Source of the DNA: a virus
Virus genome (UHGV): UHGV-0169025
Reading direction: 5' to 3' (one strand)
Length of the DNA stretch: 12,045 nt
The notes under the pieces are model-generated. The model saw only the letters and a program-made list of their open reading frames with translations, was not told where the DNA came from and made no database searches. This document shows positions 6,477 through 7,929 of the stretch, piece by piece. Both the position numbers and the translations under genes were made by a program. Positions within the stretch are counted from its first letter, which is position 1, and each line of letters opens with the position of its first letter.

Positions 6477-7115
6477 ATGAGCATTGTAGCAAAATCAGAT
6501 TATAACTTCCAAGGATTCACCTTTAACCCTGTAACAGAGGGTGGGTCTATCTGGTTTACCTCCACCGAACTAGCTAAGGCTCTCGGCTATAAAAAAACTG
6601 ATGCCATCAGCCAAATTTATGCCCGTAATGCTGACGAGTTTTCCGACTCAATGTCATTGACCCTCAATATGAAGGTCAACGGAATAAACAATAGCTTACG
6701 TAACAAATCGGTCAGAGTTTACTCGCTCCGAGGCGCTCACTTGGTGGCGATGTTTGCTTCTACGCCCAAGGCCAAAGAGTTCCGCCGCTGGGTGCTGGAT
6801 ATTTTGGATCGGCAGGCAGAATGCTCACCGATTGCAAAACAGTTTACTGACGAAGAACTGGTTAATCTCTGCTACTTACAATTGTGGATGGAGAAGAGTC
6901 AACAAATGTGCAAACACATCTACCCAGGAATGAAGCAAATTGGTTCTGAGCTTTCAGGAAGGATTTACGATATTGCATATGAGACTCGCTACATGTCAGA
7001 AGAAACCAAGAAATCACTTCTTCGTGAAATGAAGAATCTTGATACCAACAATTTTGTCGTAAAGAACGCTCAGCCAATGCTGGCAAAACTGCGCGGCGAG
7101 GAATGGATTCATTGA
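6477..7115 (+). CDS. Phage antirepressor-like protein with N-terminal Bro-N/AntA-type domain
   Basis: Start ATG 6477 with SD AAGGAA (6465-6470, 6-nt spacer) is preferred over ORF-track start 6393, which overlaps arc. N-terminal region FQGFTFNPVTEGGSIWFTSTELAKALGYKKTDAISQIY...VRVYSLRGAHLVAMFASTPKAKEFRRWVLDILDRQ fits the Bro-N/AntA pattern as I recall it. C-terminal half not recognised. Confidence 0.7.
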   Translation: MSIVAKSDYNFQGFTFNPVTEGGSIWFTSTELAKALGYKKTDAISQIYARNADEFSDSMSLTLNMKVNGINNSLRNKSVRVYSLRGAHLVAMFASTPKAKEFRRWVLDILDRQAECSPIAKQFTDEELVNLCYLQLWMEKSQQMCKHIYPGMKQIGSELSGRIYDIAYETRYMSEETKKSLLREMKNLDTNNFVVKNAQPMLAKLRGEEWIH

Positions 7116-7134
7116 TTGGTGCGCCGGACGGCGC

Positions 7135-7165
7135 AAAAAGAAAACCGCCAGTGTGCTGCTGGCGG
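7135..7165 (-). terminator. Intrinsic-terminator-like hairpin oriented for leftward transcription
   Basis: CCGCCAG (7145-7151), 7-nt loop, CTGGCGG (7159-7165). Read on the minus strand the stem is followed by TTTTCTTTTT (revcomp of 7135-7144). A second 5-bp GC hairpin GCGCC-GGAC-GGCGC lies at 7121-7134. On the plus strand the run is A-rich and upstream of the stem, so it is not a convincing rightward terminator. Confidence 0.3.
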
Positions 7166-7203
7166 CCTATGTCACACCCTTACTACCACATAAGGAATGC
7201 CTA

Positions 7204-7929
7204 ATGACTTTTAAGAATGTAGCAAACATCGGATCCGTTGTCACGGATAAAACCATTGACAGCCAAAGTCTTCTGATGATGGTTAATGAAGCTCGCAAGT
7301 TATGTGGAGAGCCATCAGTACGTAACAACAAATTCATCGAGAAAATTGAGGATGAATTGGAGGGCGAGACCTACACAAAAAGTGTAGGTCGGAAAAACGG
7401 GGCTGACATTGATGTTATCTCCATGACTATCAAGCAGGCGCTTCGTGTTGCTGCTCGCGAATCTAAAGCAGTTCGCCGCTCACTGGTAGACCAACTTGAA
7501 AGTATGCAAGAAGCGCACATTAAAAGCGGTAAATCAGCGAGTGGACTTGTTGAGTATCGTCAAGCGCGAACATTGAAAATGACGGTTGAAGCTGTTACCA
7601 ATCTGTTCGATCTGATGCCAAATCTTGCGCCGGAAGCAAAGCAGACTGCTGCAGCAAGCATAATCAACCCGCTCGTTGGTTTTAATGCAATACCTCTTCC
7701 GGCAATAGAAGAGCATTACTACTCAGCAGGGGAGGTTGCAGAGCAGCTTGGAGTAACGGCTAACAAGATTGGTCGCATTGCTAACGCAAACAACCTCAAA
7801 ACTGAGCAGTACGGGAAGTTCTTCCTGGATAAATCGGCGCATTCCAGCAAACAGGTAGAGGCGTTCCGCTACAATGCGGAGGGTGTTAAAGCACTACAAC
7901 ACCTGATTCATGGGAGCAATGTTGCATAA
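7204..7929 (+). CDS. Phage antirepressor-like protein with C-terminal KilA-C (ANT)-type domain
   Basis: Start ATG 7204 with SD AAGGAA (7192-7197, 6-nt spacer) is preferred over ORF-track start 7153. C-terminal region YYSAGEVAEQLGVTANKIGRIANANNLKTEQYGKFFLDKSAHSSKQVEAFRYNAEG resembles the KilA-C / antirepressor C-terminal domain as I recall it. N-terminal half unassigned. Confidence 0.7.
   Translation: MTFKNVANIGSVVTDKTIDSQSLLMMVNEARKLCGEPSVRNNKFIEKIEDELEGETYTKSVGRKNGADIDVISMTIKQALRVAARESKAVRRSLVDQLESMQEAHIKSGKSASGLVEYRQARTLKMTVEAVTNLFDLMPNLAPEAKQTAAASIINPLVGFNAIPLPAIEEHYYSAGEVAEQLGVTANKIGRIANANNLKTEQYGKFFLDKSAHSSKQVEAFRYNAEGVKALQHLIHGSNVA

Follow-up and report, generated by a model that had tools for sequence, protein, structure and literature searches.

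A mosaic P22-type immI operon with a compact ant and a P1-Ant-related add-on gene, each under probable antisense control

The region between the ejection-protein and tailspike genes of the virus genome UHGV-0169025 is probably a mosaic P22-type immI operon with the order Pant-arc-gene 1-gene 2-gene 3, which encodes two independent antirepressor-family proteins, each gated by an antisense RNA of its own. This secondary immunity region appears to vary an already known system and not to represent a new type. The window, i.e. the whole analysed stretch of 12,045 nucleotides, covers the end of the late operon in an E. coli prophage of the P22-like type (Lederbergvirus), along which ejection-protein genes, a SieA-like gene, a Mnt-like gene, arc, genes 1–3, a second Mnt-like gene, a tailspike gene and an integrase gene follow each other. 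Positions 5800–8600 are 95–98% identical to prophages of 25 complete E. coli genomes, and phage JEP4 is 97.7% identical to the window from arc onward. In the accessible part of the study by Villafane et al. (2008, PMC2629481) the slot between the ejection and tailspike genes is presented as the highly variable "ant moron" or immI of P22-like phages, with ten types of up to six genes among sixteen genomes; the same part describes neither gene 2, nor its relationship to P1 Ant, nor a second antisense unit. [quoted passage not shown] The features of the region are as follows.

5169–5837, minus strand: SieA-like gene
5855–6106, minus strand: first Mnt-like repressor gene (83 aa), divergent from arc; Pfam Arc, E = 1.6e-17
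6156–6183, plus strand: putative Pant-like promoter, TTGACA-16-CATAAT, with 11 of 12 consensus matches
6190–6210: candidate operator, a perfect 9-3-9 palindrome, ATGACATCA-TGG-TGATGTCAT
6212–6403, plus strand: arc (63 aa); Pfam Arc, E = 1.2e-11; 42% identity to P22 Arc
6405–6476, minus strand: sar homologue (antisense RNA 1), about 72 nt, over the ribosome-binding site of gene 1
6477–7115, plus strand: gene 1 (212 aa), Bro-N and P22_AR_C domains; phrog_245 (Ant), E = 8.6e-50
6483–6512, minus strand: Psar-like promoter 1, TTGGAA-18-TGcTACAAT, within the first 36 nt of gene 1
7133–7209, minus strand: predicted antisense RNA 2, about 77 nt with predicted ends, over the Shine-Dalgarno sequence and start codon of gene 2
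7142–7168, minus strand: intrinsic terminator of antisense RNA 2, a 10-bp stem followed by TTTTCTTTTT
7204–7929, plus strand: gene 2 (241 aa), P1-Ant-like N-terminal domain, helical linker and MerR/Xis-type winged-helix C-terminal domain
7216–7244, minus strand: promoter predicted for antisense RNA 2, GTGACA-17-TGcTACATT, within the first 41 nt of gene 2
7929–8150, plus strand: gene 3 (73 aa; phrog_4977, unknown function), its start overlapping the gene 2 stop codon (TAATG)
8157–8178, plus strand: terminator closing the arc-gene 1-gene 2-gene 3 unit, 8 pairs followed by TTTCTTTT
8165–8422, minus strand: second Mnt-like repressor gene (85 aa), convergent with gene 3 and directly adjoining the tailspike gene; Pfam Arc, E = 4e-15
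8555–10729: tailspike gene
past the tailspike gene: integrase gene

An earlier note, made from the nucleotide sequence, had recognised two plus-strand reading frames downstream of arc, and both prove to be real genes. It had also pointed out that each is preceded by AAGGAA, a 6-nt spacer and ATG (gcAAGGAAactaacATG; taAGGAAtgcctaATG), which is correct; this is a good Shine-Dalgarno arrangement and in itself unremarkable. The note let the module end at 7929, but gene 3 and the second Mnt-like gene extend it beyond this position.

Judged by its sequence, gene 1 corresponds to P22 ant in both position and architecture, being located behind arc and equipped with a sar homologue. A Bro-N-type N-terminus, as originally suggested, is borne out by the match of residues 19–109 to Pfam Bro-N (PF02498, E = 1.3e-10). 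The C-terminal half had been termed unrecognised; it corresponds, however, to Pfam P22_AR_C (PF10548; residues 121–188, E = 2e-13, above the cut-off) and aligns with residues 206–274 of P22 Ant with 29% identity over 69 aa (BLASTP, E = 1e-9). The 300-aa P22 Ant combines this domain with P22_AR_N (PF10547, E = 4.6e-44), to which the 212-aa protein of gene 1 gave no match in the Pfam search; Bro-N takes its place. Since P22 Ant itself is composed of P22_AR_N and P22_AR_C, gene 1 is best regarded as an Ant with its full set of two domains, of which the N-terminal one is of another kind, and not as half an ant. The proposal that one ant had been divided into a Bro-N-type and a KilA-C-type protein is thereby contradicted, because gene 1 alone holds both Ant domain types. 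Ant PHROGs match gene 1 across nearly its entire length, proteins 99% identical to it occur in the phages JEP4 and SPN3UB, and full-length relatives are found in Klebsiella, APSE and other phages. A sequence search of the PDB with gene 1 returned just spurious matches to designed repeats.

The surroundings of gene 1 reproduce P22 immI (mnt-arc-sar-ant) in the same slot between ejection-protein and tailspike genes. The mnt-like and arc genes are divergent, and residues 13–49 of the first Mnt-like protein are 57% identical to P22 Mnt. The Pant-like site, the top-scoring promoter of our scan, lies between mnt and arc as Pant does in P22, and the candidate operator is placed between this promoter and the start of arc, comparable to Oarc/Omnt of P22. 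According to the P22 annotation, sar is a 70-nt antisense RNA with a promoter just inside ant and a terminator in the arc-ant spacer, which controls ant translation. Based on conservation of both sequence and structure, the spacer between arc and gene 1 is a clear homologue of sar. It can be aligned to the P22 arc-ant spacer, and the predicted fold of antisense RNA 1 adopts the two-hairpin shape of sar (−33.3 kcal/mol, z = −5.3), with the terminator hairpin at 6411–6445; the shape is retained and both stems covary across 33 distinct variants. The −10 element of the Psar-like promoter ends 6 nt inside gene 1, exactly the offset annotated for Psar relative to ant in P22. Beyond these shared elements, and P22_AR_C as the domain common to gene 1 and Ant, P22 immI is devoid of gene 2, gene 3 and the second mnt-like gene, and the second sar-like unit is likewise an addition of the present locus. 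The immI region therefore exceeds that of P22 in antirepressor-family coding capacity, as the earlier note had maintained, by combining a complete Ant-type gene 1 with gene 2.

Gene 2 is annotated by PGAP as "hypothetical protein" and is one of about 1,970–2,000 equally long family members in the Enterobacterales, almost none of which carries a name. It is matched end to end by phrog_1726 (E = 6e-102), whose label "anti-repressor" is an annotation only. Searches of Pfam, NCBIfam and PDB sequences gave no match, neither half being covered by Pfam or NCBIfam, and no experimental work on proteins of this type was found in the literature. Gene 2 is related neither to P22 Ant nor to gene 1. The N-terminal half, also listed as unrecognised in the earlier note, turned out to be closely related to P1 Ant: residues 14–105 are 73% identical to residues 112–206 of P1 Ant1 (E = 3e-43), an identity spanning 95 aa which correspond to residues 29–123 of Ant2. 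In P1-type Ant proteins this half (approximately residues 14–110 of gene 2) precedes a KilAC domain. As another conceivable relative we considered gp22 of SPN3UB, encoded there behind an identical gene 1, but it is an unrelated ORF6N protein.

The C-terminus of gene 2, which had been described as KilA-C-like, retains this likeness at the level of the fold and among viral proteins only. Its best full-length fold matches among the viral predicted structures of BFVD bear the names antirepressor or KilAC (E as low as 1.7e-9), but Pfam ANT/KilAC (PF03374), the C-terminal domain of P1 Ant, is not detected at E ≤ 0.1, and hhalign comparison of a 120-sequence profile of the C-half with 7 ANT domains yielded a probability of 1%; these domains form a shallow alignment, which a very remote relationship might escape. 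In view of this negative result the C-terminus of gene 2 was not filed under Pfam KilAC; it is a distinct unnamed module in the same architectural position. The AlphaFold model is of moderate quality (pLDDT 71, pTM 0.35) and consists of two compact domains with long helices between them and of disordered residues 1–15. Within it, residues ~173–236 match solved MerR-like DNA-binding domains with a winged helix of the MerR/Xis/RacA type. An exhaustive HMMER search revealed that the two halves recombine independently. Among 150 representatives the C-half (~105–241) is found after Bro-N (28), Rha (23), ORF6N (13), KilA-N (13), AntA (9) and P22_AR_N (4) domains. Genes 1 and 2 are accordingly typical two-module members of the domain-shuffled phage regulators of the Bro-N/KilA-N/Rha/ORF6N kind, several of which are commonly found in one immI-like operon, as in SPN3UB, in P1 (ant and kilA) and in Stx phages. 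The particular chimeric make-up of gene 2, a P1-Ant core joined to an unnamed MerR-like module, appears to be undescribed within reach of our searches.

Genes 1 and 2 are separated by a spacer of 88 nt that contains no plus-strand terminator. Together with the beginning of gene 2 it appears to form a second unit built on the logic of sar, which seems likewise undescribed within reach of our searches. Its alignment with the P22 arc-ant spacer is weak. Its terminator is the strongest of the region. Across 14 distinct variants pairing extends to 100% of the cells of the stem alignment and compensatory changes affect 4 of 9 pairs, a number reached by 1 of 500 shuffles; in slid controls the paired fraction amounted to 18–56%. 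On the promoter side, GTGACA, the 17-nt spacer and TGnTAnAnT recur without exception in the 11 distinct 5′ variants of gene 2, while the encoded residues 2–12 differ. Promoter-like sites are not enriched in the region relative to shuffled sequences (6 found, 7.4 expected), so that the call of this promoter rests on its conservation and on the analogy to P22. Conservation does not extend to the 5′ stem-loop of the predicted RNA, and folding of the RNA as a whole shows no exceptional stability (z = −1.9). With a promoter in the start of gene 2 and a terminator in the spacer, the transcript should cover the Shine-Dalgarno sequence and the start codon by base pairing and thereby block translation. 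We thus predict that antisense RNA 2 is made and represses gene 2 translation. The Stx-phage homologues of gene 2 lack the unit. An Rfam scan of the whole window (E ≤ 1) recovered no sar or other relevant family, neither sar-like unit being matched; its sole match was a weak Mu-gpT-DE at 1187–1211.

Phage P1 offers two points of comparison. Its Ant1/Ant2 proteins, encoded in P1 immI, are under antisense-RNA control, as is predicted for gene 2; however, P1 uses the C4 RNA, encoded in the same operon upstream of the icd/ant target sites, whereas the RNA predicted here is a cis-antisense RNA. The P1 kilA gene, an antirepressor-family member with KilA-N and KilAC, has an antisense promoter, PaskilA, annotated together with a start of transcription within the 5′ end of its coding sequence. 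This layout matches the one predicted for gene 2, although the protein domains differ and the sequence is unrelated to the spacer or promoter of the present locus.

The distribution of gene 2 was surveyed in 80 viral contigs, each encoding a relative that shares 69% identity or more with it. Upstream of this relative, 69 contigs have an Ant-type gene ending at a distance of at most 400 nt, and these upstream genes fall into four sequence classes: genes at least 95% identical to gene 1 (10 contigs), a 76%-identical allele of gene 1 (39 contigs), diverged Bro-N types (10 contigs) and true P22-type ant (10 contigs). Four of the other 11 contigs are of the Stx type and possess an AntA+P22_AR_C gene downstream instead; the remaining seven gave no tblastn match to gene 1, and in both of the two inspected a regulator-sized reading frame is located directly upstream. 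Conversely, SPN3UB-like phages carry gene 1 without gene 2, and the Klebsiella phage phiKp_30 carries gene 2 without an adjacent ant. The gene 2 module was detected in 91 of 5,426 complete E. coli genomes. Its homologues in Stx phages belong to the early-left operon, not to immI, with the gene order reversed. As to whether genes 1 and 2 travel together, the general arrangement of some Ant gene followed by gene 2 holds up across loci, but the particular pairing does not. This conserved layout with a variable partner identifies gene 2, as far as can be judged from comparison of sequences, as a separately acquired add-on cassette and not as a fragment of ant. Conservation of the spacer begins at the antisense terminator (7142–7168) and is gone upstream of it, which we take as the left edge of the mobile cassette. 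From there the cassette comprises gene 2 and often continues to gene 3 (present in 38 of the 80 loci) and the second mnt-like gene (45 of the 80). The latter is annotated as mnt in JEP4, and residues 7–79 of its product are 47% identical to P22 Mnt. The terminator at 8157–8178 sits between the convergent gene 3 and this second mnt-like gene. Docking of such a cassette behind diverse ant alleles appears to be undescribed within reach of our searches.

Adjacent, co-oriented genes at a position where P22 has a single one might also be regarded as what is left of a single ancestral ant after a frameshift or split. This origin is refuted and can be practically dismissed, as both Ant domain types are present within gene 1, gene 2 resembles neither P22 Ant nor gene 1, a spacer with signals of its own lies between them, and both are full length relative to their own families. 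Considerably more weight, albeit still little, has to be given to a different interpretation of that spacer, according to which the hairpin and its A-run constitute a recombination boundary or a plus-strand mRNA element and the apparent conservation of the promoter merely reflects protein coding. A DNA palindrome can indeed form a hairpin on either strand, and the gene 2 residues V13 and T14 are conserved. However, a U-run follows the hairpin on the minus strand only, in 14 of 14 variants, and the two outer pairs are G-U pairs formed on the minus-strand RNA only, which become C-A mismatches on the plus strand. Moreover, synonymous choices are fixed at the 5′ end of gene 2: Leu is always encoded by TTA, Ala by GCA and Val by GTC, and the codon preceding GTC always ends in T irrespective of whether it specifies V, I, S or T. 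The predicted disorder of residues 1–15 and a geometry that would copy the proven Psar/sar arrangement of P22 likewise argue against protein coding as the cause, and we consider the interpretation distinctly unlikely.

As for the function of gene 2, the main competitor of an antirepressor role, on account of the winged-helix domain, is that of a sequence-specific DNA-binding regulator or host-takeover factor with shuffled domains, comparable to Rha, KilA and Bro and co-expressed with ant. The MerR/Xis/RacA-type C-terminal domain fits a transcription factor equally well, the Bro-N, Rha, ORF6N and KilA-N partners of the C-half are predicted DNA-binding modules, and the Stx-phage homologues operate outside immI, in the early-left operon. 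On the other hand, the N-terminal domain is that of an experimentally defined antirepressor, P1 Ant, at 73% identity, post-transcriptional control is predicted to be tight and of the Ant style, and gene 2 is consistently placed directly behind Ant-type genes, which together make a purely DNA-binding role rather unlikely. The same placement, in 69 of 80 loci, and the Ant1/Ant2/C1 complex of the P1 record might alternatively suggest that gene 2 supplies an accessory subunit or specificity factor to the upstream Ant-type protein, in the manner of P1 Ant1 and Ant2. This appears improbable, more so than the spacer interpretation above: the upstream partners belong to at least four unrelated or distantly related sequence classes, which argues against a specific protein interface between gene 2 and Ant, phiKp_30 lacks an adjacent Ant gene, and the order is reversed in Stx phages. 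Based on the P1-Ant-like domain, the genomic context and the style of control, we tentatively assign an antirepressor function to gene 2, with chances that are close to even or slightly below. In P1, Ant1/Ant2 antagonise the C1 repressor and, according to the P1 record, form a complex with each other and with C1. The statement that the target of the module cannot be inferred from sequence stands, and a role in defence or anti-defence is unsupported, since NCBIfam and PADLOC searches with genes 1–3 provided no meaningful matches.

Consistent with an antirepressor assignment, we propose the following scenario. The Pant-like promoter (6156–6183) would drive arc, gene 1, gene 2 and gene 3 as a single unit ending at 8157–8178. 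By analogy to P22, the Mnt-like and Arc proteins would limit transcription at Pant, while each antisense RNA might limit translation of its own gene, the sar homologue that of gene 1 and the predicted antisense RNA 2 that of gene 2. Upon derepression of Pant both proteins would most likely be made transiently. Each might then bind non-covalently to a different set of prophage repressors and inactivate it, and inactivation of two such sets would allow the phage to override a wider range of immunities. A bolder version, which we regard as unlikely and put slightly below the DNA-binding alternative, would treat the gene 2 cassette as a portable antirepressor with a private antisense RNA, representing a new family of small RNAs and placing a P1-type activity beside the phage's own Ant with cross-family prophage induction as the consequence. 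If it applied, one infecting or induced phage could disable both lambdoid C2/CI and P1 C1-like repressors.

Antirepressors decide whether resident prophages stay silent. Some of them act in trans on other prophages and thereby couple these to each other (PMC3121763). The domain assignments reported here could improve annotation, because gene 2 and both of its halves are without Pfam or NCBIfam models and the protein is annotated as "hypothetical". The second sar-like RNA predicted here would add to the cases in which short cis-antisense RNAs gate genes of the antirepressor family one by one. If gene 2 encodes a second antirepressor that differs in specificity, this common prophage module could couple the induction of several prophages in E. 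coli, Salmonella and their relatives. Such coupling would matter for the dissemination of traits carried by phages, as Stx2a phages also harbour homologues of gene 2.

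Gene 2, which encodes a protein with a P1-Ant-like N-terminal and a MerR-type winged-helix C-terminal domain, is immediately followed by gene 3 (7929-8150). The start codon of the latter lies inside the gene 2 stop codon (TAATG, 7927-7931), an overlap which suggests that both genes are translationally coupled. The 73-aa product of gene 3 belongs to phrog_4977 and has no match in Pfam, NCBIfam or PADLOC. Since only 38 of the 80 related viral loci encoding gene 2 relatives carry gene 3, it is optional. Further features of the window are listed below.

Additional features of the window
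8165-8422, minus strand: second Mnt-like ribbon-helix-helix gene, 47% identity to P22 Mnt
8423-8554: 132-bp spacer between the second Mnt-like gene and the tailspike gene
5169-5837, minus strand: gene for a SieA-like protein

The second Mnt-like gene is oriented convergently with gene 3 and directly neighbours the tailspike gene on its other side. Its match to P22 Mnt spans most of its length and is longer than that of the arc-adjacent mnt-like gene; its presence thus raises the number of Arc-family genes at the locus to three. A tailspike-facing promoter within the spacer could be a candidate target of this second repressor. The SieA-like protein comprises 223 aa compared to 164 aa annotated for P22 SieA, with an identity of only 27%, and the in-frame upstream extension of its gene may reflect either an artefact of ORF calling or a genuine longer variant. 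At 1187-1211, a small hairpin and a Shine-Dalgarno sequence immediately precede the gene starting at 1209; the weak Rfam match to Mu-gpT-DE there (E 0.32; 21.6 bits, where the gathering score is 49) is probably due to chance.

A segment with gene 2, its complete upstream spacer and the second mnt-like gene was transferred to the Klebsiella Lederbergvirus phiKp_30 (L003, 3990-5063), where its neighbour is an opposite-strand tailspike gene. The final 21 nt of the antirepressor gene 1 are also retained, and the segment therefore derives from an ant-gene 2 arrangement. Stx2a-converting phages (L006, phage F451, 4492-6705) contain a gene 2 homologue (64% identity) and an AntA+P22_AR_C protein, the two genes being separated by an antirepressor pseudogene. 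Both genes reside in the early-left operon near xis/int, their order is reversed, and the predicted sar-like antisense RNA unit is missing. Disrupted modules were found in L075 (4001-5955) and in the E. coli genome matches H30 and H37. Some prophages have an interrupted gene 2, in which a second partial copy comes about 1 kb after residues 1-197, and in others IS3-family elements (IS1203) are inserted into the module; this points to decay or turnover that is still under way.

In phage JEP4 (L001), the place of the Mnt-like gene ahead of arc and gene 1 is taken by a larger opposite-strand gene (3093-3662), whose 190-aa product carries the annotation 'repressor protein C2' in the record. At the equivalent position, a more distant contig (L085, 2184-2957) contains a 257-aa ORF which, judged by eye, looks like a CI-type repressor. 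These putative repressor genes hint that some versions of the antirepressor operon are controlled differently, perhaps with a link to the SOS response.
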